DNA of 62,888 nt from Weeksellaceae bacterium (GTDB lineage Bacteria > Bacteroidota > Bacteroidia > Flavobacteriales > Weeksellaceae), in the NCBI GenBank assembly GCA_030535475.1, contig JAUNRT010000003.1, forward strand, positions 1 through 62,888, read 5' to 3'. How positions within the stretch are numbered: the stretch's first letter is position 1; each line of letters begins with the position of its first letter. A program made the position numbers and the translations under genes. Shown here in pieces: positions 181 through 62,408 of the stretch. The notes under the pieces are model-generated. The model did not search any database, was not told the origin of the DNA, and was given only the letters and a program-made list of their open reading frames with translations.

Positions 181-1275
181 ATGAAATTGACGTTGAAAAT
201 CAAACTTCTTCCAACCGCTGAACAGGCTGAATTGCTTCTCGAAACCATTCGGGAAACCAATGTAGTCTGTAACGCCATTTCGGATGTTGCTTGGTCTAAA
301 CGTATCTTTAACAATTTCAAACTCCATCACGAAGTTTACCATGTCTATAAGTCCACATTCAAACTTTCTTCCCAAATGCTTATACGCTCTGTTGCAAAGG
401 TTGCGGATGCTTATAAGTTGGATAAGAAAGGTAAACGTACTTTCAGACCTCTTGGCTCTATTGCTTACGATAGCCGTATTATGACTTACAAGCCCAACAA
501 TGTCGTTTCCTTGTGGTGCATTGGCGGTAGGCAGAAGATTAATTTTGTCTGCCATAATCCTGATTATCTGCCCTACATTAAAGGAGAAGCTGACTTGGTT
601 TACAAAAAAGGTAAATTCTATCTGTTTCAAACCGTTGATGTTCCCGAACAAGACATTGATGATATTGAATCGTTTATCGGTGTGGATTTCGGTCTTCACG
701 ATATTGTAGTTACCTCTGATGGTGTTAAACATTCTGCCGATTGGATTAATTCTTATCGGGAGCAAAGACAAAAAGTTCGTAGTTCTATTCAAAGCAAAGG
801 CACACGAAGTTCTAAACGACTTCTGAAACGGCTCTCTGGCAAGGAAAGAACAACGGCTACCATAATCAACCACACTATTGCAAAAAGCATTGTAAATTCT
901 GCTAAAGAACAAGGTAAAGGCATTTCGATTGAGGACTTGACTAATATCCGCTTTACTTCCAAAAGACGAAACAAAAAGTTTAGGACTAAACTTGGTCGTT
1001 GGTCTTTCGGGCAGCTGCGTTCTTTCCTTACTTACAAGTCTGCTTTGAATGGTGTTAAATTGGTTGCCGTAGAACCTCGTTACACTTCTCAAACTTGTTC
1101 CTCCTGTTTCCACATTGGAAAAAGGACTAACAAAGTGTTTAAGTGCACAAACCACAAATGCAAAGTTGATGTTGTTGATGCAGACTTTAACGCTGCTCAA
1201 AACATTTCTTTGTTGGGGGAAACCGTAAACCTCCCCGAAAGATGCGATATGTACAGTTGTTCTGTGCATTATTGA
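181..1275 (+). CDS. tnpB: TnpB/OrfB RNA-guided nuclease (IS605 OrfB family)
   Basis: Split RuvC motifs are present: GVDFG (D), ISIEDL (E) and DADFNAAQNI (D). A zinc-finger pattern CSSC...CTNHKC is also present. The N-terminus MKLTLKIKLLPT is typical. The ATG at 181 is preferred over the TTG at 166. Confidence 0.93.
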   Translation: MKLTLKIKLLPTAEQAELLLETIRETNVVCNAISDVAWSKRIFNNFKLHHEVYHVYKSTFKLSSQMLIRSVAKVADAYKLDKKGKRTFRPLGSIAYDSRIMTYKPNNVVSLWCIGGRQKINFVCHNPDYLPYIKGEADLVYKKGKFYLFQTVDVPEQDIDDIESFIGVDFGLHDIVVTSDGVKHSADWINSYREQRQKVRSSIQSKGTRSSKRLLKRLSGKERTTATIINHTIAKSIVNSAKEQGKGISIEDLTNIRFTSKRRNKKFRTKLGRWSFGQLRSFLTYKSALNGVKLVAVEPRYTSQTCSSCFHIGKRTNKVFKCTNHKCKVDVVDADFNAAQNISLLGETVNLPERCDMYSCSVHY

Positions 1276-1284
1276 TGTCTAAAG

Positions 1285-1308
1285 CCCCGATGCCTTTAGG
1301 CTCGTGGG
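1285..1308 (+). repeat. Right-end subterminal hairpin of the TnpB element (likely part of the omega-RNA scaffold)
   Basis: CCCCGAtGCC-TTTA-GGCtCGtGGG has the same apex as the left-end hairpin and lies just after the tnpB stop codon. Confidence 0.55.
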
Positions 1309-1814
1309 TAGTTTACTAATTCGTTTAAATATTCCAAAACGTGTCGGCGTTGGAGGTCTTCAATGTTCTGAAAATCCAACCCTTTTGCGGCACACCAACG
1401 TAGGAACTGACTTAGTTTCTGCTCATAATCCCCAGCGGTTGTAGCGGTAAGTGATTTTTGTTTTATCTCCAATGCCCATGTCAAGGCAGATTTTACGGTA
1501 TAAGTATCTTTAGCATTCGGGTATGGAGAATGACCTTGATGCAGTAACATTAGTAAATTTTTCTGTAAAAGTTTAAGTTCCTTCAATCTGGTTTTTACAT
1601 CTTTTTCAGATTGATTGAGAAGATAAATGTTTTGTTGGCGTTCGAGCTTATCGGTTTGTGGGTTTCTATATTTGTAGTACACATACCACCGTTTTGAGGT
1701 ATCCAAATTGGCACCACCAGTATAGATTTTCGGGATTGAAAAATGTTTTTTATTTTTCCTCAAATGGTGTTCAAATTGGTGTTCAACTCTTAGTAAATCC
1801 AATATTTTATCCAT
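1296..1814 (-). pseudogene. Tyrosine (phage-type) integrase, N-terminal fragment truncated by the TnpB insertion
   Basis: These 172 aa cover only the N-terminal arm-binding/SAM-like region (RWYVYYKYRNP.., ..HVLEYLNELV). The catalytic domain is missing. The gene starts 47 nt from the 3' end of the tRNA, a classic island-integrase position. Confidence 0.7.
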
Positions 1815-1860
1815 AAAAAAATCGGTGTAAAACGCTATTTATCACCGATTTAATACACAG

Positions 1861-1934
1861 TAGCGAAGACGGGAATTGAACCCGTGACCTCAGGGTTATG
1901 AATCCTGCGCTCTAACCATCTGAGCTACCTCGCC
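1861..1934 (-). tRNA. tRNA-Met (anticodon CAT); a lysidine-modified tRNA-Ile2 cannot be excluded
   Basis: The reverse complement GGCGAGGTAGCTCAGATGGTTAGAGCGCAGGATTCATAACCCTGAGGTCACGGGTTCAATTCCCGTCTTCGCTA folds as a 74-nt cloverleaf. It has a 7-bp acceptor stem, GCTC/GAGC D stem, TTCATAA anticodon loop and ACGGG/CCCGT T stem with a TTCAATT loop. Confidence 0.9.
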
Positions 1935-3989: not shown

Positions 3990-4048
3990 AGTTAGGAGAT
4001 TTTTCCGATATGAGTGGCACACGATTTTTAATTGTAAATTACTTTAGT

Positions 4049-4778
4049 GTCAGGCTCTGATAAATTGAGCATAAACAGCAGATAGATGAGATTTTTTTTA
4101 TTTGGGCGGCACCCTTTTCTGGGCAAAATACTTCAGGTTTTATAGAAATCGGCCAAATACCAGGAAACCACCCCAATCTCAAATTTCCATACATGAAATT
4201 GCCCAGAAAAGGGTCGGTGTACGGCTAATACTCCGCGGTCTTTTGGCTACAAAAAATGCTGCAAAATCGGTTTTCCTTAATCTCTCAACCCGCTTTGCAG
4301 CTTTTTTGTAAGAGCCAAAATCCCTTGCGGGGTAACCGCCTACCACCTGCCGCGGCCAACCGCTAAGGCCATTTTGCTTCGCTTGTAACATTTGGATGTT
4401 TTTATTTTGGTCAATTCTAGATGTTTTTTGTGCATCGGCGATTTTGATAGATTTTCTGCCGTTTCTTGGCACAAAAAGCCCTCATTGACCGTGTGTTCCA
4501 AGTGAGCGTTTATGGTATGGCTTGTAGAGACGTTGTCATGTAACGTCTCTACAAGCAGCGTAACGTTTCTAGGTGCATTGAAATGTCTCTAAGTGTTTGC
4601 GGAAAATGGCCTTGTGGGCTGGCCTAGCCCGGATGCGAGCGGCTATCCTTGCAAAATAGACAGCCCTACAGCAATCTGGTGTGGCGGTGGCCGTAACGAT
4701 AGTGGAGGCAGCCGCGACACCGATTGCTGTGGCTGTATATGAGCAAGATAATAGCGGGCAGCCGGAAATAGCTCCTAA
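4049..4778 (-). repeat. Structured two-module repeat element, copy E1 (A end at left, B end at right; inverted relative to E2)
   Basis: About 90 percent identical by eye to the reverse complement of 16492-17262 outside the hairpin apices. A-module is 4101-4355, the central palindrome 4521-4555, and the B-module about 4572-4778. Confidence 0.9.
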
Positions 4779-4793
4779 AAATAGTACTGCTAC

Positions 4794-5678
4794 TTATTTG
4801 CCTTGCTTGAAGAGGAAATCTTTTTCTTGCTCTGTGAGGGAGTTGTAGCCTGAGCGTGATATTTTCTCTAAAATGCGGTTGGTCTCTTGTTCTTTTTCTA
4901 CTTTGAGACTGTTGTAGTCATAGTCATTCTTGGGTGGGATGACGGGTGCGTTTTGCTGTTGTGCCGCAGTGGAAGTGCGTTTTTTGGTTGTCCTTGTGCT
5001 ACGCAAAGGTCCGGTTCTGCGCGTGCTGAATCTTTCTAGGAGCTTGTCAAACCACGCGAGGAAGTCTTGTCCGCGCTCATACTGCTTCATGTAATAGTAG
5101 CCAAATAGTGCGCCACCTGCGTGGGATAGGTTGCCTCCAAAATTGTTGGCATGCAATAGAAATCCTAGCACTAAAAATCCTATGGCGAGGTGCATGATGC
5201 GAATGGGTGTTTCTATGAAAAGGAGTCTGATGCGATAGTCTGGCTGATAGGCTGCGAGACCGAAAAGGACGGAATATATAGCAGCAGATGCACCCATGAG
5301 TATATTATTAGATGGGTAGATGAGGGCGTAGAGCGTGTATAGTAGTCCGCCGGCTATGCCACCAAATATGTAGAATTTGGCGAGGGCTTGCTGGTTGAAG
5401 AATTGATAGAAAAATCTGCCCACGAAGTAGAGAAATACCATGTTGAACAAGATGTGAAATATGTCTATATGCAAAAACATATAGGTGATAAGGGTCCACG
5501 GCTTGCTGGCAATGTCATCTATGTAGGCTATGATGCCGAGGTACTCTGTGATGCGCAGTCTGTCTGAGAACAAAAGGATCAGGCGAACGAGTACGAAGAT
5601 AGCGACGTTGATATAGATGATTTTGATGACAAAATCACCTTGTTTGAAGTTTTTTTTGAGGTTATCTATCCATTCCAT
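4794..5678 (-). CDS. Rhomboid family intramembrane serine protease
   Basis: Multi-TM protein with a GASAAIYSVLFG serine motif and a downstream SHAGGALFG histidine motif. Confidence 0.85.
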   Translation of the reverse strand: MEWIDNLKKNFKQGDFVIKIIYINVAIFVLVRLILLFSDRLRITEYLGIIAYIDDIASKPWTLITYMFLHIDIFHILFNMVFLYFVGRFFYQFFNQQALAKFYIFGGIAGGLLYTLYALIYPSNNILMGASAAIYSVLFGLAAYQPDYRIRLLFIETPIRIMHLAIGFLVLGFLLHANNFGGNLSHAGGALFGYYYMKQYERGQDFLAWFDKLLERFSTRRTGPLRSTRTTKKRTSTAAQQQNAPVIPPKNDYDYNSLKVEKEQETNRILEKISRSGYNSLTEQEKDFLFKQGK

Positions 5679-6495: not shown

Positions 6496-8289
6496 TCAGG
6501 TGAATTGTGCATCTGTTTCTTGCCGTGATATGATGTGGTAGTTTTTCTTACCTGCAGGAGAGTAAACATTGTTTTGTAGGTTGAGAAACTCTTGCAGCAT
6601 ATTGCTTGTCTGATCCGGGCTAAGGTGCTGACCTGAGCGCACGGCCATGGATTTGGCCATAGATTTGGCGAGATGCTCCCGATGGGTGTCATACTCAAAG
6701 TGCATTTCATTGCTCAAATAGTGGCGTACCACATCCGGGAGCATACTGGCAGGCAAGTCTGCAGGTAGTGCGTTGAATTGTATTGTTTGATCTTGGAATT
6801 CTAAGCCAAAACCAAAGGAAATGAGCAATTTTTCGGCGTCTTGCAGGGCAACTTTTTCTTGCATGTTGAGCTCTATGCTGATGGGAAATAGAAGCTGCTG
6901 GCTGAGCACATGGCTCTGATCTTTGGATCTGAAATGATGGTAGAGTAGTGTTTGGTGCATACGATTGCGATGTATGACCATCAGGTTGCCGTGGAAGACG
7001 TGCAACAGGTATTTTTCTGCCCAAGGCAGTGCAGTATGTGAGTGTAAGGGCAGGTCTAGAGCCGGGGCTTGCTCTTCTTGCTCTATATGATGATGTAGAG
7101 TACCGATGTCATATTTGCCGCCAGCGCTTGGGATTTGTGGCTGACTGTGATGTGTGTAGTTATTGCTTGTGTGTGTGCTTTCTACTTCAAAGGGATTGTA
7201 TGTCCTGTCAACGCTGATTTGCGGCGGTGCAATGTTTTGATTCTTGGGTAGGGAAGGGATTTCCCATTGGGGTTGATCAAAATCTATGGCTGGTGTAACG
7301 TGGAACTTATTTAGTGCCATTTTACATGCAGCTCGTAGTTGCGCATAAATAGCTATTTCATCCTCAAATTTTACTTCTGTTTTGGTGGGATGTATGTTGA
7401 TGTCAATTTTTTGCGGGTCTATGGTAAGAAACAGAAAGTATGATGGATGGTGGCTAGGGGAGATGAGGTTTTCGAAGGCGCTTTGCAAAGCTCTATGTAG
7501 GTATCCACTGCGTATGAATCGGTTATTTACAAAAAAGAATTGCTCACCTCTGGATTTTTTGGCGATCTCTGGTTTGCCAATGTAGCCAGTGATGCTTACG
7601 ATGTCTGTTTCTTCTTGTACGCTGATGAGTTTTTCTTCTATTTTGCGACCGAAAAGTTGCACGATGCGCAATGCAGGTGTGGCGGAGTTGAGTTTGTACA
7701 CCTCTGCATCATTATGCACAAGAGACATTTCTATTTTGGGGTGTGCTAGCGCAACACGGTGAAACTCATCTAGGATGTGTCTGAACTCTACACTATTGGA
7801 TTTGAGAAAGTTGCGTCTTGCGGGTATATTGTAGAAGAGGTGTTTCACGGCTATCATGGAGCCGGGTTGTGTGACAGTGGGATCTTGCTTTTTGATTTCG
7901 CTACCATGGATATGTAGCTCGGTTCCAAGGCTGTCTTCCGGTTGTTTGGTTTTGAGCGTGACTTGTGCTACAGCTGCAATGGATGCTAAGGCTTCGCCAC
8001 GGAATCCTTTGCTTGTAAGGTGAAAGAGGTCTTCTGTTTTGCGAATTTTGGAGGTGGCGTGTCTTTCAAAAGCCATGCGAGCATCTGTGACGCTCATGCC
8101 GCGACCATTGTCTATGACTTGGATGAGTGATCTGCCTGCATCTTTTATCACAAGTTGAATATTGTCTGCACCTGCATCTACTGCGTTTTCCAGCAATTCT
8201 TTGACGACGGATGCGGGTCTCTGAACTACTTCTCCGGCAGCGATCTGATTGGCAACATGATCAGGCAATAGCTGAATGATGTCACTCAT
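6496..8289 (-). CDS. mutL: DNA mismatch repair protein MutL
   Basis: MSDIIQLLPDHVANQIAAGEVVQRPASVVKELLENAVDAG is the canonical MutL GHKL ATPase N-terminus. The start is set at the ATG at 8289. Confidence 0.95.
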   Translation of the reverse strand: MSDIIQLLPDHVANQIAAGEVVQRPASVVKELLENAVDAGADNIQLVIKDAGRSLIQVIDNGRGMSVTDARMAFERHATSKIRKTEDLFHLTSKGFRGEALASIAAVAQVTLKTKQPEDSLGTELHIHGSEIKKQDPTVTQPGSMIAVKHLFYNIPARRNFLKSNSVEFRHILDEFHRVALAHPKIEMSLVHNDAEVYKLNSATPALRIVQLFGRKIEEKLISVQEETDIVSITGYIGKPEIAKKSRGEQFFFVNNRFIRSGYLHRALQSAFENLISPSHHPSYFLFLTIDPQKIDINIHPTKTEVKFEDEIAIYAQLRAACKMALNKFHVTPAIDFDQPQWEIPSLPKNQNIAPPQISVDRTYNPFEVESTHTSNNYTHHSQPQIPSAGGKYDIGTLHHHIEQEEQAPALDLPLHSHTALPWAEKYLLHVFHGNLMVIHRNRMHQTLLYHHFRSKDQSHVLSQQLLFPISIELNMQEKVALQDAEKLLISFGFGLEFQDQTIQFNALPADLPASMLPDVVRHYLSNEMHFEYDTHREHLAKSMAKSMAVRSGQHLSPDQTSNMLQEFLNLQNNVYSPAGKKNYHIISRQETDAQFT

Positions 8290-8612
8290 TGAGAGAAGAT
8301 ATTGGAAAAGTTTGGGTTGGTAATCATCCACATTACAAGTACAAGCATCATGAGCACTACAAAAATTACGAAAGTGTTGGTGCCTGGTGTGCGCTTGCTG
8401 TGTGAGCGTTTGGTGCGGTAGCTGCTGAAATCTATATTGTAGTCGCCTTTGGTTTCTTTGCCTTGGTTTGCCTTTCTTTTGGCAACATATCCTTGGGCAA
8501 AGCGAGATTCAGACATGCGATTGTAGAGCAGATTGTTGTTCTGCTTGTCATAGTAGCGCGGTGTGTAGTTGAATTTGCGCGGTTTATGTTTTGGGACTAA
8601 TCTGCTGATCAT
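8286..8612 (-). CDS. Hypothetical small membrane protein (C-terminal TM helix)
   Basis: ATG start, a basic N-terminal half, and one hydrophobic helix (FVIFVVLMMLVLVMWMI). It overlaps the mutL start by 4 nt, suggesting translational coupling. Confidence 0.55.
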   Translation of the reverse strand: MISRLVPKHKPRKFNYTPRYYDKQNNNLLYNRMSESRFAQGYVAKRKANQGKETKGDYNIDFSSYRTKRSHSKRTPGTNTFVIFVVLMMLVLVMWMITNPNFSNIFSQ

Positions 8613-8692
8613 ACCTACAAAGTTACGAATTTTTCTCTTTCCACACTTGAGCCTTGCTGCGGGTGATGTATGTGTGGTGTATGTATTTAGGC

Positions 8693-8722
8693 AAAAAAAC
8701 CGGCTATTTCAGCCGGTTTTTT
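8693..8722 (-). terminator. Intrinsic terminator downstream of infB
   Basis: ACCGGCT-atttc-AGCCGGT is flanked by an A run and a T run, so on the minus strand it reads as a hairpin followed by a U run. Confidence 0.75.
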
Positions 8723-8746
8723 ATTTTAATTTGTGTTCAAAATCGA

Positions 8747-11641
8747 TTATTTCAATTTTTTCTTCACTTCTTTTACTTCATAAGCCTCTATGAGGTCACC
8801 TACTTGTATGTCATTGAATCCTTTGATGTTGAGACCGCATTCATATCCTTTGCTTACTTCTTTCACATCATCTTTGAATCTCTTGAGACTGGCAAGTTCG
8901 CCTTCGTGTACTACTACACCATCGCGTATGATGCGCACCTTAGAGTTTCTATAGACTTTGCCGTCTAGTACCATACATCCTGCAATAGTACCAACACGTG
9001 TGATTTTGAAAGTTTCGCGTATTTCAACATTTCCGGTAACTTCTTCACGCATTTCTGGTGATAGCATCCCTTCCATCGCTTCTTTGACATCGTTAATGGC
9101 GTCGTAGATGATAGAATATGTACGGATTTCTACTTCTTCTTTGTCGGCAATGTTTCTTGCAGTTGCATTTGGACGTACGTTGAAACCAATAATTATGGCT
9201 TCTGAAGCCGTAGCCAATAGAACGTCAGATTCTGTGACAGGACCCACACCTCTGTGCAGTATGTTTACATGAATCTCATCTGTAGAGAGTTTTTGTAGAG
9301 AGTCTGTCAATGCTTCTACAGAACCATCCACGTCACCTTTGAGTATGATATTGAGCTCTTTGTAGTCACCAATGGCAATACGTCTTCCAATCTCGTCAAG
9401 GGTAAGTTGTTTTTGTGTACGTACAGATTGCTCTCTCTGTAATTGTGATCTTTTGGTAGCCAATTGCTTAGCTTCACGTTCATCTGTAAACACACGGAAT
9501 TTGTCACCCGCAGTAGGCGCTCCGTCAAGTCCAAGAATAGTAACCGGAGTTGATGGACCGGCTTTTTTCATGTTTTTACCGCGCTCATCTAGCATGGCTT
9601 TGATTTTACCGTGGTTGCTACCTGCCAATACATAGTCGCCAATGGCGAGTGTACCATTTTGTACGATGATCGTAGATACATATCCACGTCCTTTGTCTAG
9701 AGTAGCTTCTATGATAGTACCAGATGCTTCTCTATCTGGATTGGCTTTAAGGTCGAGCATTTCTGCTTCTAGTAAGACTTTTTCTAGAAGTTCTTGTACG
9801 TTCATACCCGTTTTGGCAGAAATATCTTGCGATTGAATGCTACCACCCCAATCTTCAACAAGGAGGTTCATACCTGCTAGTTGTTCTTTTACCTTTTCCG
9901 GATTGGCTGTAGGTTTATCCACCTTGTTGATGGCAAAAATCATTGGAACACCTGCAGCTTGTGCGTGTGCAATGGCTTCGCGTGTTTGCGGCATTACTTG
10001 GTCATCTGCAGCAATAACTATGATAGCTATGTCTGTAACCTTAGCACCTCTGGCACGCATAGCAGTAAAGGCTTCGTGACCCGGAGTGTCTAGGAATGTA
10101 ATATGCTCACCATTTTGCAATTCAACGCTGTATGCGCCAATATGCTGGGTGATACCACCTGATTCACCAGCAATAACGTTGGCTTCACGAATGTGGTCTA
10201 GTAAGGATGTTTTACCATGGTCAACGTGACCCATTACGGTAACAATTGGAGCTCTTTTGATGAGATCCTCATCCTTGTCTTCTTGAACGTCTGCAACTGC
10301 TTCTTCTATTTCAGCATCTGCATATTCTGTTTCATATCCAAATTCATCTGCAACAAGGTCTATGGTCTGCGAGTCAAGACGTTGGTTCATAGTTACCATA
10401 ACACCTATAGACATACAGGTAGAGATCACGTCCATTACAGACACGTTCATCATGGTTGCCAACTCGTTTACCGTTACAAACTCTGAAACGTGTAGAGTTT
10501 TGTCCTGTTCTTGTTGTTGGATTTCAAACTCCTCTTGTTCACGACGGGATTGACGTTTTTCGCGACGATATTTAGCACCTTTAGAACCTTTACCTTTGGT
10601 GGTAAGCTTCTCAAGCGTTTCCTTGATTTGCTTTTGTACTTCCTCATCGGTAAGCTCTGCAACATCTTTGGATTTAGGTCTTTGTCGTCTATTTTGACCT
10701 TGAGGTCCGGCTTTTCTGTCGTCGAGTTTTACATTTTTGACAATGCGCTTTCTCTTCTTCTTTTCTCCAGCATTGGCGTCTGTTTTGATAGCCTTTTCAC
10801 GTTTTGGTTTTTCAAATTGTGAAAGGTCTATTTTACCAACTTGAGTGATACCGTCAAGTTTTTTGTACTGGGTTTTTATGGTTTCGTCCTCCTTCTTTTC
10901 TGCAGTGTCTGCGGCAGGAGTGGCTTGTTGCTTTGCAGCTACAGCAGGTTCTTTCTCTGCTGGTTTTACCGGATCGGTTTTTTCTGTTTTGGCTGCCGGA
11001 GTAGCTTGTTGCGGTTTAGCCGGCTCTGGTTTTTTGCGTTTATCACTTCTTGAAGGCAATTCTATCTTGCCAACTTCTTTGATTCCGGACAATTTTTTTC
11101 TACCTCCGATGAGGTTGTCGTCTTCAGCTTCATCTTTCGGCTCTTCTTTGGTGGCTTGCGCTTTTTCTTGCTCAGCCTTTTCCGCTGCAATACGTGCTAC
11201 TTCCTCTGCTTCTTTTCTCTTTTTCTCCTCTTCCTCTTGCTGAATACGCGCAGCCTCTCTATCCTTTTCTTCTTGAAGAAGTCTTTGAGCCTCTTTTTCT
11301 TGGGCTTCTTTCTCTTCCTGCTCTTTGAGCAATTGTTGTTCAGCCTGTTTTTGTTGCAAATCCTGCTCTCTTTTCAAGCGTTCTTCTTCTCGGCGCTTTT
11401 CTTCTTCTCTTTTTTCCTTGAAGTCATCAGCGTATTTATTGATTACAACTTCTTTAGAAGATTCACGGCGCTCGCGGTCGGCATGAAATTCTTTGGCCAT
11501 AATTTCATACACGCTTTCATCCAACTTCGCATTAGGGGATACAGTGAGCTGCACTTCGTTTTTGTTTAAAAACTCAGCGGCTCTTTCCATGCTAATGTTG
11601 AATTCTTTGAGAACTTGTCCTAATCTATAGGTTTTGGCCAT
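8747..11641 (-). CDS. infB: Translation initiation factor IF-2
   Basis: GTPase core [24 protein letters not shown] and NKVD, preceded by the long E/K-rich N-terminal region typical of Bacteroidota IF-2. Confidence 0.97.
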
Positions 11642-14927: not shown

Positions 14928-16313
14928 TTAAATCATGTCTTCCGGGCGCACCCATTGATCAAACTCTTCAGCTGTTACGTAGCCTAGATTTACGGCTTCT
15001 TCTTTGAGAGTAGTGCCGTTTTGATGTGCGGTTTGTGCAATTTCGGCAGCTTTGTAGTAGCCAATCTTGGTGTTGAGCGCAGTAACCAACATGAGTGAGT
15101 TGTCTAGCAACTCCTTGATTCTACTGTGATTAGGCTCTATACCATCCACGCAATGCTCTTTGAATGACAAGCAAGCATCGGCCAATAGCTGAGCGCTTTG
15201 CAGCAAGTTGTAGGCAATCACAGGTTTGAAAACATTGAGCTCAAAGTGCCCTTGAGTGCCTGCAATGGATACAGTAACGTCATTGCCCATCACTTGAGCG
15301 CAAACCATTGTCACAGCCTCTGATTGAGTAGGGTTTACCTTACCCGGCATGATAGAAGATCCTGGCTCATTGCTGGGAATGATGATTTCGCCAATGCCAG
15401 AGCGTGGTCCGCTTGCAAGTAGGCGAATGTCATTGGCAATTTTGTTGAGTGCCACTGCCAGTTGCTTGAGCGCACCGTGAGTTTCTACCATGGCATCATG
15501 AGCGGCCAAGGCTTCAAATTTGTTTTTGGCTGTGATGAATGGCAAGCCTGTAAACTCTGCAATATATTCTGCAACTTTCACATCATAGCCCTCCGGAGTG
15601 TTGAGTCCTGTGCCTACTGCTGTGCCGCCCAGTGCTACTTCAGACAAGTGTGCTAGCGTATTTTTGATAGCCTTGATAGCATAGTGTAGCTGTGCTGCAT
15701 AGCCAGAAAATTCTTGCCCTAGCGTGAGCGGCGTGGCATCCATGAGGTGTGTGCGACCTATTTTCACCACATCTTTGAATTCCTCTGATTTTTCTTGCAG
15801 AGACTTATGGAGTTTTTCCACAGCGGGCAAGGTGGTTTCCACCACTTTTTTGTAAGAAGCGATGTGCATGCCAGTAGGGAAAGTGTCGTTGCTAGACTGT
15901 GATTTGTTTACATCATCATTGGGTGCAAGCGTTTTCTCGCCTTCACCAATTTTTTTGCCGGCCAATTGATGCGCACGATTGGCTATGACCTCGTTCACAT
16001 TCATATTAGACTGCGTGCCAGAGCCCGTTTGCCAGATAACAAGAGGAAATTGATCGTCCAATTTGCCTTCCAAAATCTCATCACACACCTGTGCTATAGC
16101 ATCTCTCTTTTCTTGAGATAGTGCTCCAAGGTCATGATTGGCATAAGCAGCTGCTTTCTTCAAATAGGCAAATCCATAGACTATTTCTAGAGGCATGGAA
16201 GCCTCTGGGCCTATTTTGAAATTGTTTCTAGAGCGTTCAGTTTGTGCGCCCCAAATTTTATCGGCAGGTACTTTTACTTCGCCAAGGGTATCTTTCTCTA
16301 TGCGGAATTCCAT
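14928..16313 (-). CDS. fumC: Class II fumarate hydratase
   Basis: Carries the [16 protein letters not shown] signature; full length is 461 aa. Confidence 0.97.
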
Positions 16314-16491
16314 AAAAAATAAATTTTTCTAAAAATGCAGTGAAAGGTACTGAATTTTAACAGAATCATTTGTGTGACATTCATCATAGGGCTGCAATTG
16401 GTGGCGCAAGGTGGTGCAGGCAATAGAGGTCTTCTTGGTATGACTAGAGAAGTGGTAATTTTTCTTGTGGGGTAATATTTTTTATTTTTTT

Positions 16492-17262
16492 TTAGGAGCT
16501 ATTTCCGGCTGCCCGCTATTATCTTGCGCATATCCAGCCACAGCCATCGGTGTCGCGGCTGCCTCCACTATCGTTGCGGCCACCGCCACACCAGATTGCT
16601 GTAGGGCTGTCTATTTTGCAAGGATAGCCGCTCGCATCCGGGCTAGGCCAGCCCGCAAGGCCAATTTCCGCAAATACTAATAGACATTTCAATGCACCTA
16701 CAAAAGTTGCGCTGCTTGTACAGACGTTGCATTGCAACGTCTCAACCGAATGTACAGAGGTTGCATTGCAACATCTTTACAATCCATGCCATAAACGATC
16801 ACTAAGAACACACGGTAACAGACGGTTTTGTGTGCCAAGAAACGGTAGAAAAACAATTAAAATTGCCTTTGTACAAAAAACATCTAGAATTGACCAAAAT
16901 AGAAAAATCCAAATTTTATAAGCGAAGCAAAACGGCCCTTGCTGCGGGCCGCGGCAGGTGGGAGGCGGTTACCCCGCAAGGGATTTTGGCTCTTACAAAA
17001 AAGCTGCAAAGCGGGTTGAGAGATTATGGAAAACCGATTTTGCAGCATTTTTTGTAGCCAAAAGACCGCGGAGTAATAGCCGTACACCGACCCTTTTCTG
17101 GGCATTTTTATGTGTATTGATAGGAAATACTTGCGGATTTGTTTTCAAAAATCCAAATGACAAAACACTACCGAATTTTGCCCAGAAAAGGGTGCCGCCC
17201 AAATAAGAAAAATAAGAAATCTGATGAACTTGTTGTTTAGACTCATCTTATCAGAGCCTGAC
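16492..17262 (+). repeat. Structured two-module repeat element, copy E2 (B end at left, A end at right)
   Basis: B-module is 16492-16675. Two tandem palindromes lie at 16722-16742 and 16756-16776. A central unit follows, then the A-module at 16949-17203. A further 60 bp or so to 17262 is shared with E1 only. Confidence 0.9.
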
Positions 17263-17376
17263 TCTGCCCAAATTTCCAGTTTTCAATCAAAAAAATTGTG
17301 AATAAGAATTTTTCTTAAAAATTTAAGAAAAAGCTTGTTTGTAAAGGATATTTCTATACTTTTAGCAAAAAAATTT

Positions 17377-18021
17377 ATGAAACATTTTGTATTTGTTGTG
17401 TTTTTCTTGGGAATGCTTGCTGGCGCGAGCGCAAAAAACTTTGTGAGAGCAGAAATTGATTACGTCAATGGCACAAGTGAGAGTGTGTATGTAGGTTTTC
17501 CTATAAGCGTTGATAGTAGAAAGATTTCTTTACGATCTTCTGAAAATGGTAAAATCACGAAGATAGACGCTGAAAATGTGCGCATGATTACGGTGAATTC
17601 TAATGACGGATTAGCGCATCTGATATATTCTAAGTATAAGTACTACTTAAGCAACATGAAAGAGAAAACATCCAAGTCTAAAGCTTGGTTTCTAAAATCT
17701 GGAGAGTGCGGTGATCTAAGCTTGTATTTAGATGCAACTGAGTATAGAATGAAAAAAAACTCGATGATGGCATATTTTGCCAGTCCGAATTCTCAAGCGT
17801 ATTACCTGCACCTGAAAAAGGCGTCAGAAGAGGAAGTCACACAAGTGGCCTTGAATAGAAGTGTTGGTCCTATGGTAGCTATTATGGCTAATAAATATTT
17901 CAGAGATTGCAGCAAGGAGTACTTTTCTGACAGGCCTGATTTGGTGGAAAAAATTGGGGCTAAGCACTATAACGGTGATGTGGTGCAGCTGATGAAGGAC
18001 TATTGTGGTATAGAAGAATAA
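17377..18021 (+). CDS. Hypothetical secreted protein
   Basis: Signal peptide MKHFVFVVFFLGMLAGASA; no family recognised. Confidence 0.6.
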   Translation: MKHFVFVVFFLGMLAGASAKNFVRAEIDYVNGTSESVYVGFPISVDSRKISLRSSENGKITKIDAENVRMITVNSNDGLAHLIYSKYKYYLSNMKEKTSKSKAWFLKSGECGDLSLYLDATEYRMKKNSMMAYFASPNSQAYYLHLKKASEEEVTQVALNRSVGPMVAIMANKYFRDCSKEYFSDRPDLVEKIGAKHYNGDVVQLMKDYCGIEE

Positions 18022-21200: not shown

Positions 21201-21280
21201 ACATCACATTTCACAGGCGATGGCGCAAGTTTCAAAAAGATTCATCACAAGGCTTTGAGCAGTTTTTCTGCGAATTTTTA

Positions 21281-21475
21281 TTAGGAGCTATTTCCGGCTG
21301 CCCGCTATTATCTTGCGCATATCCAGCCACAGAAATCGGTGTTGCGGCTGCCTTCACTATCGTTGCGGCCACCGCCACACTGGATTTCTGTACGGCTGTC
21401 TATTTTGCAAGGATAGCCGCTCGCATCCGGGCTAGGCCAGCCCTCAAAGGCCATTTTCCAGCGCAGACATACAGT
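21281..21475 (+). repeat. Solo B-module of the structured repeat family
   Basis: TTAGGAGCTATTTCCGGCTGCCCGCTATTATCTTGCGC...CCGGGCTAGGCCAGCCC is collinear with 16492-16675. The long hairpin carries paired substitutions. Confidence 0.9.
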
Positions 21476-34489: not shown

Positions 34490-34584
34490 TTTTCAGCAAA
34501 TTTTCATGCAAAAGTCCATTTTCTTTTTCTAAAAACCAATCAATGCACTCATTTTTTTATCTTTGCCTATTGCAACACATCCCT

Positions 34585-35586
34585 ATGGACAAGCATAAAA
34601 AGCAGAGAATAGGCGTCATCGGCAGTGGAAGTTTTGGTACAGCCCTCACCAAGATTTTTTGTGAGACCAATGAGCAAGTAAATTGGTGGGTGCGCAGTGA
34701 AGAAGTTAAGGACACCCTCCTCACAGAGCATCGCAACCCGCACTACCTGAGTTCAGTATCATTCCGCCCCAACAAGCTTCAAGTATTCACAGATATCAAC
34801 CAGCTCGTGGAGCACACAGACATCCTTGTCTTTGTCACGCCCTCCATCTACCTGCTAGACTGCCTCAAAGACCTCAACGTCTCGCTACAAGACAAGCTTG
34901 TAGTCACAGCCATCAAAGGTCTCATTCCGCAGCAGTCCAAGATCATAGGAGATTATTTCCATGAAGATCTGGGCATACCCTTGGACAACATTGGCGTCAT
35001 AGCCGGCCCGTGTCATGCAGAAGAAATAGCACTCGAGCGGCTCTCATACCTTACCGTAGCCTTCAAAGACGCACACAAAGCAGAAATCCTTGCCCAACAC
35101 CTGCGTTGCAGGTACATGAACGTCACCTTGAGTGATGATATCTTTGGCACAGAACACTCCGCAGTGCTCAAAAACGTGTATGCCATATCAGCAGGTTTGG
35201 CGCATGGGTTAGGCTATGGAGACAACTTCATAGCAGTTCTGCTCAGCAATGCCATCCGTGAAATGGCGCGCTACATGGACGCCATTTATCCCATACAGCG
35301 AGACGTTAACGAGTCTGTTTACCTTGGTGATTTGCTCGTCACCGGCTACTCCTACTTCAGTCGCAATCGCATGTTTGGCAACATGGTAGGCAAAGGCTAT
35401 ACAGTGAAATCCGCACTTATGGAGATGAACATGGTGCCAGAAGGCTACTACGCCGCAGACGGTATCAAAAAAATCGCTGACGAGCACAACGTGCACCTAC
35501 CCATACTCAATCGCGTACACAAAATCCTTTACCGCGACAAAAACCCCAAAAAGCAATTCCAAAAACTCACTGCCGACCTCAATTAA
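34585..35586 (+). CDS. gpsA: NAD(P)H-dependent glycerol-3-phosphate dehydrogenase
   Basis: RIGVIGSGSFGTAL Rossmann motif and a GpsA-like C-terminal domain; ATG at 34585. Confidence 0.9.
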   Translation: MDKHKKQRIGVIGSGSFGTALTKIFCETNEQVNWWVRSEEVKDTLLTEHRNPHYLSSVSFRPNKLQVFTDINQLVEHTDILVFVTPSIYLLDCLKDLNVSLQDKLVVTAIKGLIPQQSKIIGDYFHEDLGIPLDNIGVIAGPCHAEEIALERLSYLTVAFKDAHKAEILAQHLRCRYMNVTLSDDIFGTEHSAVLKNVYAISAGLAHGLGYGDNFIAVLLSNAIREMARYMDAIYPIQRDVNESVYLGDLLVTGYSYFSRNRMFGNMVGKGYTVKSALMEMNMVPEGYYAADGIKKIADEHNVHLPILNRVHKILYRDKNPKKQFQKLTADLN

Positions 35587-35683
35587 CCCCGTATAAACGC
35601 CAGGCTTTTTCATTTGCAGCATTCATATAAATAACAAGATTACATAGAGGAGCCTAGCAAAGTATAATTATTTTTTTATTTTT

Positions 35684-35863
35684 TTAGGAGCTATTTCCGG
35701 CTGTTGCCTCCAATCTTGTTGGTCAGTGGCAGCAAAAAAATCTCCCTTCAGGCACACTCTCCCGGATGAGCCGGGACCCGGTACCTGCAGGGAGTTTTTT
35801 GCATTGCCACTGCCTGCACAAGGATTTCCGGCACATTCGGGCTAGGCCATACAGCACAAGGCC
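35684..35863 (+). repeat. B-module, subtype 2
   Basis: Conserved 5' block. The closing helix is ATCTTGT/ACAAGGAT (35713-35719 / 35818-35825). A roughly 29-bp hairpin spans 35724-35812, and the 3' block is CGGGCTAGGCC..GGCC. Confidence 0.85.
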
Positions 35864-36106
35864 AAAAAATAGTCAGCACCCATTCCCACAGATCAAAAGC
35901 TACAACCAGCATTCACATACAACCAGCAATCACTTTCAAAGGACAATCAAAATCCCAGAAACACGGTCACTGAGGGTTTTTTGTGCCAAAAATCGCGGGA
36001 AAAACAAACAAAAATTGAAACTGCACAAAAAATGTCTCGAAGTGACGAACTTCAAACTTATTCCTTTGCTTCCTGTGGCTTCTCGACAATTTGGCTTAGG
36101 CAAAAT

Positions 36107-36146
36107 CCCTCAGCCACCGTTTTGTATCGGTCACTGAGGGTTTTTT
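36107..36146 (+). terminator. Intrinsic terminator-like hairpin ending tandem unit 1
   Basis: CCCTCAG-20 nt-CTGAGGG followed by TTTTTT. Confidence 0.7.
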
Positions 36147-36267
36147 GTGCCAGAAGTCGCAGTAAAACCAATGAATCGTCAGTGCACAAAAAACGTCTCG
36201 AAGTGACAAACTTCAAAATTATTGCTTCGCTTTATGTGGCTTCGAGACAATTTTGCTTTGGCAAAAT

Positions 36268-36307
36268 CCCTCAGCCACCGTTTTGCATCGGTCACTGAGG
36301 GTTTTTT
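36268..36307 (+). terminator. Intrinsic terminator-like hairpin ending tandem unit 2
   Basis: CCCTCAG (36268-36274) ... CTGAGGG (36295-36301) followed by T6 (36302-36307). Confidence 0.7.
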
Positions 36308-36544
36308 GTGCCAAAAATCACGGGGAAAACAAACAAAAATTGAAACTGCACAAAAAATGTATCGAAGTGACGAACTTCAAAATTATTCCTTTGCTTCACG
36401 TGGCTTCTAGATAATTTGTCTTAGGCAAAATCCTTCAGCCACCTTTTTCCATGTGAAAGCTTTGAAACTTGAATTTTGCAAATCAGCACCGCTGACTTGC
36501 AAAAAAAAGAGCAATATGAAGGTCTATTTGCACTTGTACAGTGT

Positions 36545-36826
36545 TTAATCTAAGTCAAATTCTCTTCCTTCTAGGAATTTCCCCCATTCTTCTGAAATAG
36601 CTTCTATAAAGGACCACGCGTGCCTATCTTCTCCAAATCCTTTGCGTATTATCGGCTGAATGAGCTCCATGGTTTCTTCCTCTGGATTGTATAAATATTC
36701 ATTCCCTTTGAGTAAATGAATGTTTACATAACAACCTCCATCACTGCCATTGAAAGGCTTTGTGTCAATGTATTTAATATTGCCTAAGTCAAAAGCCTGA
36801 TTTCCGAATAAAAAAATTCTTCCCAT
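36545..36826 (-). CDS. Hypothetical small acidic protein (93 aa) carried inside element E3
   Basis: ATG at 36826 (MGRIFLFGNQAFDLG...). No recognisable family. The upstream part of the longer track ORF looks non-coding. Confidence 0.45.
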   Translation of the reverse strand: MGRIFLFGNQAFDLGNIKYIDTKPFNGSDGGCYVNIHLLKGNEYLYNPEEETMELIQPIIRKGFGEDRHAWSFIEAISEEWGKFLEGREFDLD

Positions 36827-37038
36827 GATTATTTGATTTAAAAATTTGATCTTTTTTGTGAACTGTTCTGGTATGCTTCTTATGCAACTTTTTGCATAAC
36901 AAAGTAAACTACGGTGTAAAAGTATTGACGTACAACGCCAAAACATGTCGTTGAAAAAAATTCAAAAGCCAAATAATACTTTTTACGCTATACCGGATGA
37001 AATAATGAGAGTTTTAAGCTAGATCTATGTTGCGATGC

Positions 37039-37283
37039 CCGCGGCAGGTGGTAGGCGGCTACCCCGCAAGGTATTTTGGCTCTTGCAAAATGTGAGCGCA
37101 AAGGGGTTGATGCCGCCCAACCGGCAGAAAACCCTTTGCGCCACTATTTTGCAGCCAAAAAACCGCGGAGTAATAGCCGTACAACCGACCCTTTTAATGG
37201 GTTGTAGAAACGCGATAATCGATGTAAATAATGAATACCCGATCCATTGCGTCTCTACAGCACAAAAAAGGGTGCCGCCCAAA
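37039..37283 (+). repeat. A-module of E3
   Basis: Collinear with 16949-17203. It has the CCGCGG...CCGCGG frame, the CC-GCAA-GG hairpin (37064-37071), and covarying helices at 37074-37091/37146-37160 and 37096-37105/37132-37141. Confidence 0.85.
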
Positions 37284-37318
37284 TCATTAAAAAATATTGC
37301 TTGCCTGTGAACGCTGTT

Positions 37319-38161
37319 TTACTCTTCTGGCATGACTACGTTTAGCTCGTTTCTGTCCCAATCGTAGAGGAAGTCTATGCCATAGTTGGTGCTGTGCACT
37401 AGCAGGCGATTGATCTCATACCGAGTGGCATACTTGCGGAAATGGTAGATGTCTGCTGGTGTGATGAAGGGTTCGCGGTCTGGATAGGTGATTGAGATTT
37501 GGCTCTGATCTATGTCTTCTTGTGTAACGCTGTGTGGCATGTACTGGTTGAATTGCAGATTGTAGAAGATTTTGCCCTCCTCGTCTGCATAATACAGGTA
37601 GTCACGCCCAAATGGTATGGTGGATGTGGCTGTGGTCTCTGTGAGCAGATAGAGCTTGTATAGGTGGCGCTCCTTGCCGCGCACTACGTCTGTGAAAGGA
37701 ATGAAAACAGGATTGAAAAACTCGTCTTTGCCAGGGTTGGTAAAACTATATTTGGATTGCACATTGCGCATTACTAGCGCTTTCATGTCTATGAAATGTA
37801 GTTCTTCTTCTGCCAATGGGCGCTCAACGGGGTTGATTTCTCCTGCGTCTTCTGAGCTGTAGTAGTACACTTCTGATATTACTTTTTGTGTGCTTTTGGC
37901 ATCCATAATCAAGGCGATAATACTATCATTGCGGGATATGACATGCACTTCGCCGGAGCGAGAGCGCATGCGCCTGTCGCCATCTATCCATTTGACGGTT
38001 TGGGTGAAGGCTTGCTCATACATATATAGCTTATCTGCTTCTTGCAATATGGAGTCATTGATCTGCTGAAAGGTGCGTGTCTCACGCTTGGTTTGCGCTT
38101 CTAATGGGGTATGCAAGCTGAGGTAAAGTAGTATCGTGAGTAAGTAAGGTAGGTGTTTCAT
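37319..38161 (-). CDS. Hypothetical secreted protein
   Basis: Signal peptide MKHLPYLLTILLYLSLHTPLEAQ; ATG at 38161. Confidence 0.6.
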   Translation of the reverse strand: MKHLPYLLTILLYLSLHTPLEAQTKRETRTFQQINDSILQEADKLYMYEQAFTQTVKWIDGDRRMRSRSGEVHVISRNDSIIALIMDAKSTQKVISEVYYYSSEDAGEINPVERPLAEEELHFIDMKALVMRNVQSKYSFTNPGKDEFFNPVFIPFTDVVRGKERHLYKLYLLTETTATSTIPFGRDYLYYADEEGKIFYNLQFNQYMPHSVTQEDIDQSQISITYPDREPFITPADIYHFRKYATRYEINRLLVHSTNYGIDFLYDWDRNELNVVMPEE

Positions 38162-38385
38162 GATTTTGTGTTTTGATTGGGTGTCAAAAAGTATTTTACC
38201 AATCCCAAAACAATGCCAAGCCCTACCCAAAATAGAAAATTGCGTATATGGTCTTGCTGAGCGATGGGGTTGTCTAGGCTATAGTGGTTGATGAGCATGA
38301 AGCCAAAAAATAGCGCTAGCCCAAACAGGACGGAGTTTTGCAACTCTCTGCGGAAACGTGGATCACTGAATTGTGGTATGGGCAT
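38158..38385 (-). CDS. Hypothetical small membrane protein (two TM helices)
   Basis: 75 aa with two hydrophobic helices; its stop overlaps the start of the downstream gene. Confidence 0.5.
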   Translation of the reverse strand: MPIPQFSDPRFRRELQNSVLFGLALFFGFMLINHYSLDNPIAQQDHIRNFLFWVGLGIVLGLVKYFLTPNQNTKS

Positions 38386-49831: not shown

Positions 49832-49859
49832 ACAGTAAATTTTTTTCTTTTTTTTTTTT

Positions 49860-50065
49860 GCTCAGGACCAGGCTATTGGGCTAAATCCTGCTTGCCATAA
49901 TCTACAAAAGCTGCTGCTGCCGGCACACTCTCAGGCTATCGCCGTGACCCGGTACCGGCAGCAGCGCTTTTGTAATAGATTTTGTCTGCGCACGATACCG
50001 CCCATATCCTTGCCTCAACTTGCCTTCGGCAAGTGTTGGGTAGTAATGGAAGCGGGGAAACTTTC
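49860..50065 (+). repeat. Diverged B-like structured module (related to subtype 2)
   Basis: Preceded by a roughly 20-nt T-rich tract. The hairpin at 49899-49980 has the same loop motifs (GGCACACTCTC ... GACCCGGTACC) as 35751-35785, but different, complementary stems. Confidence 0.7.
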
Positions 50066-54487: not shown

Positions 54488-54694
54488 AAGTACATTGAAA
54501 TTTGCCGATGAGGCAAAAATGGCCTTTGTGGGCTGGCCTAGCCCGTATGCGAACGGAAATCCTTGCGCGGCAATCTGCCCTACAAACAGTGGGCTGGCAG
54601 GTACTGGAATCCCTTGTGGTGGACGTACCGGCAAGCCCTCTGTTTGTGGCAGATTGCGAGCAAGATTGCAGTGGGCAGCCGGAAATAGCTCCAA
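54488..54694 (-). repeat. Solo B-module, subtype 3, in the lpxD upstream region and in lpxD orientation
   Basis: The reverse complement begins TTGGAGCTATTTCCGGCTGCCC. It has the AATCTTGC/GCAAGGATT closing helix, a roughly 30-bp hairpin, and then ACGGGCTAGGCCAGCCC...GGCC and ATTTCAATG. Confidence 0.85.
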
Positions 54695-54855
54695 AAAATA
54701 ATAAATAGGCTAATCAAGCATGATAAAGTGTTGATTTTTAAAGGATTGATGAGTTTTGTGGAATTTGAATGTGTTTGGAGAAAAATGGCTTGAAGGAATT
54801 GTAAAATCTGTTTAAATTTGTGTTTTCTAATTTTCAACAAAAAAGTAGGAGTTTT

Positions 54856-58066: not shown

Positions 58067-58098
58067 GTATAAGTGATCTGATCACTGGGTCTTATGAA

Positions 58099-58130
58099 AT
58101 CCCGCAGCCGCAGGCTGCGGGATTTTTTTT
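58099..58130 (+). terminator. Intrinsic terminator after paralog 1
   Basis: ATCCCGCAGCC-gca-GGCTGCGGGAT followed by T8. Confidence 0.85.
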
Positions 58131-58230
58131 ATGAAACAATTTTTCTCGATGAATTGAGTTTTTGCCTTATGCCCTACGGCATTTTGTGTAACTTTATGGC
58201 CAATTGATATTTTTAACACAAATAGTTTTC

Positions 58231-59805: not shown

Positions 59806-59840
59806 GAATTTCAAGCGCTAAAACAGTATTCGTTTAGAAA

Positions 59841-59872
59841 AATTCCGGGATGTGAAAATTCCGGAATTTTTT
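59841..59872 (+). terminator. Intrinsic terminator after paralog 2
   Basis: AATTCCGG-loop-CCGGAATT followed by a T run. Confidence 0.7.
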
Positions 59873-59978
59873 ATTTCGCAATTCTCAAATGTGCAACATA
59901 AGCCGCTTTTATGGCTCAAAGTTTTTGAAAAATAGCTATTTTTAGCGCTACAACAAATTACTTTAATAAAAAAATAGT

Positions 59979-61598: not shown

Positions 61599-61638
61599 AT
61601 TCTCCCTGTGATCATAGATTGCAGGGAGAATTTTTTTT
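61599..61638 (+). terminator. Intrinsic terminator after paralog 3
   Basis: ATTCTCCCTG-loop-CAGGGAGAAT followed by T8. Confidence 0.8.
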
Positions 61639-61639
61639 A

Positions 61640-61667
61640 TTTGGGCGGCACCCTTTTCCGGGCAATT
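61640..61667 (+). repeat. Isolated A-end stub of the structured repeat family
   Basis: TTTGGGCGGCACCCTTTTCCGGGCAA matches the outer 28 nt of the A-module (4101, 17203rc, 37283rc), but no partner arm follows. Confidence 0.7.
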
Positions 61668-61839
61668 CACGGAATAGCTGTTTTATTGCGGTTTTTGAGA
61701 AGAAAACCGCCAGATTTCCCAAAGTCTCTATAATTTAAATCCGTTACTATTATTGACTAAAATGCTCAAATCATCATCTTTAACGCTTTTTTCCATAACA
61801 AACGGCAGGATCCAATGAGGGTGGAGAGGTGAAAAAATA

Positions 61840-62403: not shown

Positions 62404-62408
62404 AAATT

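Follow-up and report, generated by a model that had tools for sequence, protein, structure and literature searches.

What kind of element is a repeat of about 255 nt that folds elaborately and lies scattered between the housekeeping genes of a flavobacterial contig? The question is raised by the A-module in contig JAUNRT010000003.1 of a Weeksellaceae bacterium (assembly GCA_030535475.1), for which an earlier note, made from the letters alone, had proposed a structured module with a GNRA-capped hairpin, nested covarying helices and a fast-evolving apical segment. The window analysed here is the complete contig of 62,888 bp, that is, a single contig of a single genome. In this window the A-module is one unit of a mosaic repeat, together with modules named B, H, L and C, and the best-supported explanation is that it represents the largest and most elaborately folded unit of that family. 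We give roughly an even chance to the reading that the family is a lineage-restricted set of mosaic, structured intergenic repeats resembling the BOX elements and bacterial interspersed mosaic elements (BIMEs). The repeat family itself is new; the kind of element is already known. Nothing shows the A-module to be a gene for an RNA whose variable loop can be programmed.

Copies of the A-Module and Their Lack of Coding Capacity

Three full copies of the A-module lie at 4101-4355 (-), 16949-17203 (+) and 37039-37283 (+), within compound elements that are called here E1, E2 and E3, respectively. These coordinates, given in the earlier note, are exact in the sequence, and an nhmmer profile of the module recovers the three copies at E values of 1e-90, 6e-90 and 2e-66. 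As drawn in the following, the E1 copy occupies 4101-4358 (-), with its apex at 4126-4199, and is 97-100% identical to that of E2 in its core; the E2 copy occupies 16946-17204 (+; nhmmer E 6e-90) and ends in the tail GCCGCCCAAAT; and the diverged E3 copy occupies 37036-37284 (+), with its apex at about 37196-37265 and with an inner rod remodelled by compensatory changes. The profile also detects a fourth, partial copy that had been missed, at 61634-61723 (-) (E 1.3e-8, model positions 179-268), which has lost the core and the left stem arm; what remains is the GCCGCCCAAAT tail, the right stem arm and a portion of the apex. All sequence features listed in the earlier note sit where it had placed them, including the CCGCGG words at 16949-54 and 17066-71 in E2 and at 37039-44 in E3, as well as CCC-GCAA-GGG at 16973-82 in E2 and CC-GCAA-GG at 37064-71 in E3.

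The A-module is non-coding. All open reading frames (ORFs) running through it are short, at 69-97 codons, and are not kept in frame from copy to copy. The frame beginning MGGTLF, which had been judged not to encode a protein, indeed behaves so, since its reverse-strand reading frame changes in E3 because of a 1-nt indel. No protein homologue of the module was found. When the six-frame translations of E2 and E3 were concatenated and compared with 5.8 billion protein clusters, there was no match among the best 8000 candidates, and the 85-codon reverse ORF of E3 gave no match (0) to 1.84 billion protein representatives.

Fold, Covariation and Strand

The A-module is strongly structured. Its copies fold far beyond chance, with z scores of the minimum free energy (MFE) of -7.5 (for E2, at -108.9 kcal/mol), -8.2 and -6.4, and none of 200 shuffles was as stable. 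The consensus fold obtained from the alignment is a three-way junction, consisting of a closing stem P1 (16946-16955 with 17194-17201, pairing 5' GG.GCGGC with 3' GCCGC.CC), a 5' rod of 132 nt (16957-17088) and a 3' hairpin of 104 nt (17090-17193). In this structure 97% of the alignment cells form standard pairs, compared with about 45-50% when the partners are slid by 1-3 columns. Double-sided changes occur in 4 of the 68 pairs; all four belong to one helix of the rod's inner half and come from a single comparison, that of E3 with E1/E2. The remaining six helices are invariant and are therefore silent for or against the fold. Thus, of the nested covarying helices that had been proposed, the inner rod keeps its pairing through double changes, and elsewhere the covariance check meets only helices that do not vary.

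Several details of the earlier description are borne out at the level of individual pairs. The exchange of an A-U for a G-C pair in the long helix is seen as A16995/T17055 in E2 and G37085/C37152 in E3, and the 15-nt arms of the terminal stem, ACCCTTTTCTGGGCA and TGCCCAGAAAAGGGT, are the same in E1 and E2. In E3 the sequence of the inner hairpin is changed and still pairs, as had been noted, but it is not an unrelated replacement: its 5' arm is homologous (GCTGCAAAGCGGGTTGA versus GCGCAAAGGGGTTGA), with compensatory changes. The two most conspicuous motifs fare less well. The letters of the GNRA hairpin, CCC-GCAA-GGG, are present, but both the MFE fold and the consensus place these bases in the extended rod. 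Likewise, the CCGCGG words that had been taken to frame the module exist, but they do not pair as a frame: the partner of the 5' CCGCGG region is the 3' GCCGC tail, and folding of every copy, like the alignment, pairs CCGC with the GCGG of the second CCGCGG. Both models, hairpin with frame and rod, rely on invariant columns only. The single change that is informative speaks against the hairpin: in E3, a G to T change at 37072 breaks the GNRA hairpin, and together with a G to A change at 37161 it turns a G/G mismatch of the rod model into a U-A pair.

The B-to-A direction in which the module was to be read depended on the GNRA tetraloop and is therefore unfounded; in addition, the folding energies disagree between copies. 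Forward and reverse values are -114 and -95 kcal/mol in E1, -109 and -100 in E2, and -116 and -121 in E3, so that the forward strand is the more stable one in E1 and E2 and the reverse strand in E3, and the A-module has no consistent strand asymmetry. Conservation is segmental at both short and long divergence, with the basal rod and the junction nearly invariant, the inner hairpins re-paired and the loop free; the junction sequence is 90% identical even in E3.

As a separate observation, the 10-mer TGCCGCCCAA occurs twice in E3, in the 3' tail (37273-37282) and in the loop of the remodelled rod (37111-37120), the second occurrence falling within an 8-nt insertion relative to E1/E2. The GGCGG of the 5' block is complementary to both. 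This doubling could reflect a repeated recognition motif or be a coincidence.

The Variable Apex

The apex of the 3' hairpin, 74 nt long in E2 (17105-17178, +), evolves as fast as had been claimed: between E1 and E2 the cores of the A- and B-modules are 97-100% identical and the linker 77-93%, compared with about 45-60%, with indels, in the apex. The further claim that the apex is different in every copy holds for E3, whose apex is unrelated to the others, but not for the apices of E2 and the fragment, which are homologous (z 5.6) and have in common a mini-hairpin in which A-U is exchanged for U-A, nor fully for E1 and E2, which are weakly related (z 2.5). An invertible apical segment was considered and rejected, as the apices are not reverse complements of each other. 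Folded in isolation and compared with shuffles, the apices of E1 (z -1.1) and E2 (z 0.0) are at chance level, and that of E3 forms a strong hairpin (z -4.2).

Searches of the window and, by blastn, of 50,697 phage records and 72,556 plasmids gave no match beyond chance for any of the four apices, and whole E2 together with the four apices gave nothing better than E 0.3 against phages and plasmids in blastn. The idea that the apex serves for targeting or specificity finds no support, as targets are lacking in these collections and, for E1 and E2, structure is at chance level. Random drift without structure or targets, the outcome that the earlier note had set against its own proposal, largely describes the apices of E1 and E2, the E3 apex being structured. 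The simplest reading is that the apex is a poorly constrained terminal loop, which drifts and takes indels, rather than a specificity cassette. A functional reading of the variable apex is accordingly not supported, and neither are the GNRA cap, the outer frame and the reading direction.

Companion Modules and Their Relation to Flavo-1

The A-module is accompanied by four further kinds of module, which are arranged as B-H-L-A-C in E1, B-H-H-L-A-C in E2 and B-L-L-L-gene-A in E3. The contig holds three full copies and one fragment of A, five to six of B, five of L, three of H and two of C, and modules are found solitary, truncated, in tandem and in either orientation. B stands alone at 21.3 kb and 54.6 kb, and the A fragment alone at 61.7 kb.

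The B-modules, located with nhmmer, lie at 4594-4798 (-) in E1, from 16472 or 16486 to 16676 (+) in E2 and 35664-35893 (+) in E3, with solitary copies at 21262-21469 (+) and 54513-54715 (-) and a weak copy at 49842-49992 (+). On the strand opposite to the B-to-A direction (the minus strand in E2), B resembles the Rfam motif Flavo-1 (RF01705), except that a hairpin of about 90 nt stands where the motif has its terminal loop. The B of E2 (about 190 nt) scores 35.3 bits (E 1.5e-5) and that of E3 25.1 bits (E 0.015), both under the gathering score of 42, because the 90-nt hairpin replaces a 15-nt loop. Apart from this insert, model positions 1-76 are all matched, and B fits the full consensus, including the conserved unpaired blocks UAGCC, GAU and AGCGG. 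Across five copies, 20 of the 56 predicted pairs of B change on both sides, and the strand that runs against the B-to-A direction, the reverse one, folds more stably in all five. B thus shares the design of A, a framed conserved base carrying a long apical hairpin of variable sequence. In the transcriptome of Flavobacterium psychrophilum, Flavo-1 matches are reported in sense or antisense orientation relative to transcripts, many of the matches being untranscribed (PMC9723704). Four of the six B copies begin just past the stop codon of a co-directional gene, with a T-run ahead.

The A-module itself is unmatched by Flavo-1 at E values up to 10. Its derivation from a diverged Flavo-1 unit was considered, as a UAGCC...CCUUUU/AAAAGG pattern is common to both, and rejected on this result. 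Rfam 15 at the gathering threshold finds only a tRNA in the whole window, and relaxed searches at E up to 10 (16300-17400) and at E up to 1 (35600-37330) place no family on A.

Of the smaller modules, H is a perfect palindrome of about 30 nt, AGACGTTGC-ATT-GCAACGTCT, present twice in E2 (16707-16790, +) and once in E1 (4525-4563, -). L (nhmmer E 1e-31 to 1e-51) abuts A in E2 (16811-16948, +), occurs once in E1 (4356-4493, -) and forms a tandem of three units of about 160 nt in E3 (35962-36123, 36127-36284 and 36288-36448). Between the last of these and the A-module, E3 has about 590 nt holding a small ORF on the other strand that matches no known family. The C tail, about 65 nt long, is common to E1 (4036-4101, -) and E2 (17205-17266, +) only. 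Each L unit of E3 has its own hairpins, TTTTTTGTGC/GCACAAAAAA and CTGAGGG/CCCTCAG, plus a TAAnTTTG motif on the minus strand. At the L/A boundary, the minus strand carries a hairpin (GGCCC-TTGCTGC-GGGCC at 16932-16952 in E2; GGCC-TTAGCGGTT-GGCC at 4350-4372 in E1) followed by TTTTGCTTCGC, which was scored terminator-like in a scan; judged by its sequence, it could end a minus-strand transcript of A.

Genomic Setting, Rearrangement and Distribution

The genes of the contig are ordinary chromosomal ones, such as nusA, infB, mutL, a rhomboid gene, fumC, aroA, gpsA, lpxD, carotenoid genes, sodA and genes for proteins with a type IX secretion system (T9SS) tail. All A copies are intergenic, amid housekeeping genes. 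Their neighbours are convergent at E1 and at the fragment and divergent at E2 and at the B copy B5, and the A-module of E3 is antisense to both of its neighbours. Such mixed contexts make cis-regulation tied to one class of gene unlikely. The Bacteroidetes-type promoter motif TAnnTTTG is absent from E1 and E2, although motif scans of this kind are weak evidence, and sigma-70-like promoters and intrinsic-terminator sites around E2 are no commoner than in shuffles.

Logan contigs of the same sample (SRR24915789), which were assembled independently, are base-identical to the window and end within modules: in B at 16505 (E2) and 35700 (E3), and in A at 4120 (E1) and 37154 (E3). Such ends are to be expected where several copies have stretches as long as a k-mer in common. 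One Logan contig matches the window identically across 37154-37319, and the break inside the diverged E3 hints that further E3-like copies may lie elsewhere in the genome. Signs of rearrangement are also found around the elements. In a relative, the locus gpsA-LemA-TPM-TPM-(303-aa gene) at 6859-10852 is colinear on one strand; in the window, at 34543-38230, E3 follows gpsA and the 303-aa gene is inverted. E3 thus sits at a rearrangement breakpoint, as the synteny from gpsA to the 303-aa gene is broken there. E1 (4023-4800, -) and E2 (16473-17290, +) are inverted repeats, about 90% identical across about 780 nt, which bracket a 12-kb housekeeping segment with the rhomboid gene, mutL, infB, nusA and fumC, and are therefore a potential substrate for inversion.

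No homologue of the A-module was detected beyond the contig in the collections searched. The exact pattern CCGCGGAGTANTAGCCGTA had 20 matches in 185,579 species representatives, all to the pattern only and in unrelated phyla; AAAAGGGTGCCGCCCAAAT had 6 chance matches in JGI metagenomes; and four scans of IMG/VR viral contigs with A and B patterns yielded chance matches only. As these scans used two or three exact 17-19-mers, diverged relatives could escape them. The lineage itself appears to be poorly represented: every protein tested from the contig is a singleton cluster at 90% identity, and the nearest translation initiation factor IF-2 (from SRR24199727) is 84% identical, on a 4.3-kb contig, the next being at most 67% identical and Weeksellaceae-like (Ornithobacterium, Moheibacter and Empedobacter). 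In about 190 kb from relatives around IF-2 and homologues of the 303-aa gene, neither A nor B nor Flavo-1 was found, and we found no description of the A element in the literature.

Comparison with Known Repeats and Structured Elements

BOX elements (boxA-boxB(n)-boxC) and BIMEs, which are built from repetitive extragenic palindromes (REPs), are multi-copy, intergenic and non-coding, consist of separable hairpin-forming modules in either orientation and include partial copies. Like BOX of Streptococcus pneumoniae and the enterobacterial BIMEs, the A repeat is multi-copy, intergenic and non-coding, with modules variable in number, order and combination, and its modules have stable hairpin potential (z -6.4 to -8.2 for A, 56 predicted pairs in B and the perfect palindrome of H). 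It is unlike them in that it has no sequence relationship to them, is larger (255 nt), forms a three-way junction rather than a simple palindrome, and is found in one poorly sampled lineage of Flavobacteriales, and no REP-associated tyrosine transposase (RAYT) or other transposase partner is known for it. No RAYT (TnpA-REP) gene is encoded in the 62.9-kb contig.

MITEs (miniature inverted-repeat transposable elements), ERIC/IRU sequences and Correia elements are short non-autonomous structured repeats, the centre of which tolerates insertions and divergence and the recognition parts of which are conserved. A match to a MITE or to the end of an insertion sequence (IS) was an alternative that the earlier note had itself named as fatal to its proposal; no such match emerged in the window. 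There are no terminal inverted repeats of at least 10 nt, the best terminal complementarity being 6-8 matches for A alone, whole E1 and whole E2. Neither are there target-site duplications, as the only candidates are 4-5 nt words at chance level at E1, E2 and the A-module of E3 and one 7-mer at the B copy B3. The window contains no autonomous IS related to A or B, its sole IS (TnpB, 26-1346) being dissimilar. The A-module is therefore not a classical MITE, since terminal inverted repeats and target-site duplications were not found. A derivative of the TnpB IS, be it a PATE or an omega-RNA, was also rejected, as the A-module has no similarity to the IS ends, the IS or the region downstream of tnpB; unlike an omega-RNA or an IS200-IS605 right end, A and B have no homology within 1-2000, and no A lies beside tnpB.

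Other structured elements resemble the A-module in part. Integron attC sites likewise have a conserved hairpin with conserved bases at the stem foot and a centre that varies in sequence and length, but the A-module differs in having no integrase or cassette array and about 150 nt of extra conserved structured sequence. The msr-msd region of retrons shares an end-to-end closing stem, a structured domain on the 5' side and a long hairpin on the 3' side, from which the A-module differs by its multi-copy mosaic nature and by having no nearby reverse transcriptase; none of the RVT family was found among the ORFs scanned across the contig. Unlike the guides of a CRISPR-like array, the apices had no significant counterpart in the window or among phages and plasmids.

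Weighing the Explanations

The reading of the A-module as a module of a mosaic repeat family is preferred because the element is modular, has no fixed relation to genes, shows no transcription signals in the motif scans and no consistent strand asymmetry of A, and is conserved by segments. It is further preferred because Logan contigs end in its modules, E3 lies at a synteny breakpoint, the element is absent from the roughly 190 kb examined in relatives, and Flavo-1 in F. psychrophilum behaves in a repeat-like way (PMC9723704). If this reading is correct, the copies would have been spread or homogenised at the DNA level, either by a transposase or recombinase acting in trans or through recombination and gene conversion among themselves. 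Recognition would fall on the GC-rich, invariant base of the fold (CCGCGGCAGGTGG.AGGCGG / ACCGCGGAGTA.TAGCCGTACA / GGGTGCCGCCC), and the long hairpins may be retained because the element works while folded as a single strand, or because it forms a stable structure within read-through transcripts. The apex would be an unconstrained loop subject to drift and indels, and the dispersed homologous copies might also act as substrates for rearrangement. Four points weigh against this reading. The hallmarks of insertion were not found, with no target-site duplication and terminal complementarity of only 5-8 bp; there is no candidate mobilising enzyme in the window, where the only transposon-type gene belongs to the TnpB IS with its unrelated ends; the near-invariant unpaired and junction sequence, with its compensated stems, suits a functional RNA gene equally; and the sample is small.

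That last but one point is central to the idea that the A-module is a multi-copy gene for a small RNA of about 255 nt, read forward from B to A, with a three-way junction whose conserved base binds a protein partner and an apex that is either a neutral loop or a copy-specific segment. We regard it as unlikely, though as the main alternative. Such an RNA would account for the very stable folds (z -6.4 to -8.2), the 97% of cells paired with four double changes in the rod, the compensatory A-U to U-A swap in the mini-hairpin of the E2 and fragment apices, the G-U pairs and the more favourable energy of the forward strand in E1 and E2, and the junction sequence that is 90% identical even in E3, as well as for the adjoining B, which belongs to a motif that Rfam curates as a small RNA and has 20 covarying pairs. 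However, E1 and E2 lack TAnnTTTG, promoter and terminator sites around E2 are at shuffle level, E3 is more stable on the reverse strand, truncated and mosaic copies occur, no Rfam family matches A, and pattern scans and protein searches found no homologue outside the contig. Intrastrand template switching in palindromic DNA can yield apparent compensatory changes, which would also count against a small RNA. Improbable, in our view, is a second alternative, in which a larger mobile or integrative element has A and B as its two ends or recombination sites. E1 and E2 would then be empty derivatives without cargo, E3 a copy with cargo (three L units and a small gene) and the fragment at 61.7 kb a duplicated partial site that integration left behind. 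E3 does keep the order and orientation of B and A seen in E1/E2, at a distance of about 1.1 kb and with an ORF between them, and it lies at a synteny breakpoint; the fragment retains exactly the 3' part of A, as in att-site duplications; and a truncated integrase and an IS are on the contig. Set against this, B is solitary, unpaired with A, at two or three places, no recombinase or transposase adjoins any copy, neither terminal inverted repeats nor target-site duplications were found, the internal ORF of E3 matches no known family, and the apex of the fragment is most like the one in E2, 44 kb away and on the opposite strand.

The notion implied by the earlier note, that the A-module is a scaffold RNA whose apex serves as a programmable guide for a nuclease, recombinase or defence system, we consider highly improbable. 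It draws on the contrast between the apices of E1/E2 (about 50% identical) and their linker (77-93%), on the conserved stem that frames the apex and on the RNA-guided TnpB encoded on the contig. Yet the apices match nothing beyond chance in the window, the 50,697 phage records or the 72,556 plasmids; they are partly homologous to each other, and therefore have drifted rather than been acquired; that of E3 is wholly self-paired and therefore unavailable for target pairing; no effector gene adjoins any copy; and A has nothing in common with the ends of the TnpB IS or with the sequence downstream of tnpB. Scarcely credible is a retron-like or other reverse-transcribed RNA, with a closing stem of the a1/a2 type, a 5' structured part and a 3' hairpin as template, even though the topology is similar (a closing stem and two hairpin domains, the 3' one variable) and A ends in an A-rich tail. 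Retrons are single loci adjacent to their reverse transcriptase, whereas A is multi-copy and mosaic, and the 63-kb contig has no such enzyme. The lesser alternatives are thus disfavoured because B is solitary in places, no enzymes are adjacent, target matches are lacking and the contig has no reverse transcriptase.

Other Features of the Contig

The IS near the start of the contig (26-1346) carries a tnpB ORF at 181-1275 (+), which matches guided_TnpB of NCBIfam at 167.9 bits and also Cas12f1-like_TNB of Pfam, and is adjoined by a truncated integrase gene at 1296-1814 (-) and a tRNA-Met gene at 1860-1934 (-). It is collapsed to a 1321-bp Logan contig and is therefore probably multi-copy. At 56495-61562, the products of three tandem paralogues (51-57% identity) are T9SS-sorted proteins, whose domains are Cleaved_Adhesin, GEVED and Por_Secre_tail. 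Beside the truncated A copy, at 61840-62816 (-), lie two small genes without a clear family, one of which has a weak match to Tox-MPTase2, a metallopeptidase toxin (E 0.005); by this match, the end of the contig may be a toxin/immunity islet.

Implications

Were the A-module instead transcribed as a discrete RNA, it would represent a new class of structured RNA without relatives in Rfam. A broader possibility, which we rate as quite improbable, is that A and the Flavo-1-like B form an unrecognised class of multi-copy structured RNAs, in which a conserved protein-binding scaffold carries an exchangeable long hairpin; the apical hairpins would then give each copy its own function, for example in recognising nucleic-acid or protein partners, and Flavo-1 would be the minimal form of the class. 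Flavo-1 has been an orphan motif in Rfam since 2010, and its linkage with A suggests that it may be one of the modules in a mosaic repeat and not a small RNA standing by itself. If the reading as a repeat is true, the A-module would belong to a new family of intergenic repeats, unusual in its size and in its elaborate folding, from a lineage of Flavobacteriales that is poorly sampled. Such repeats break short-read assemblies, yield spurious ORFs of 69-97 codons and mark the breakpoints of rearrangements.

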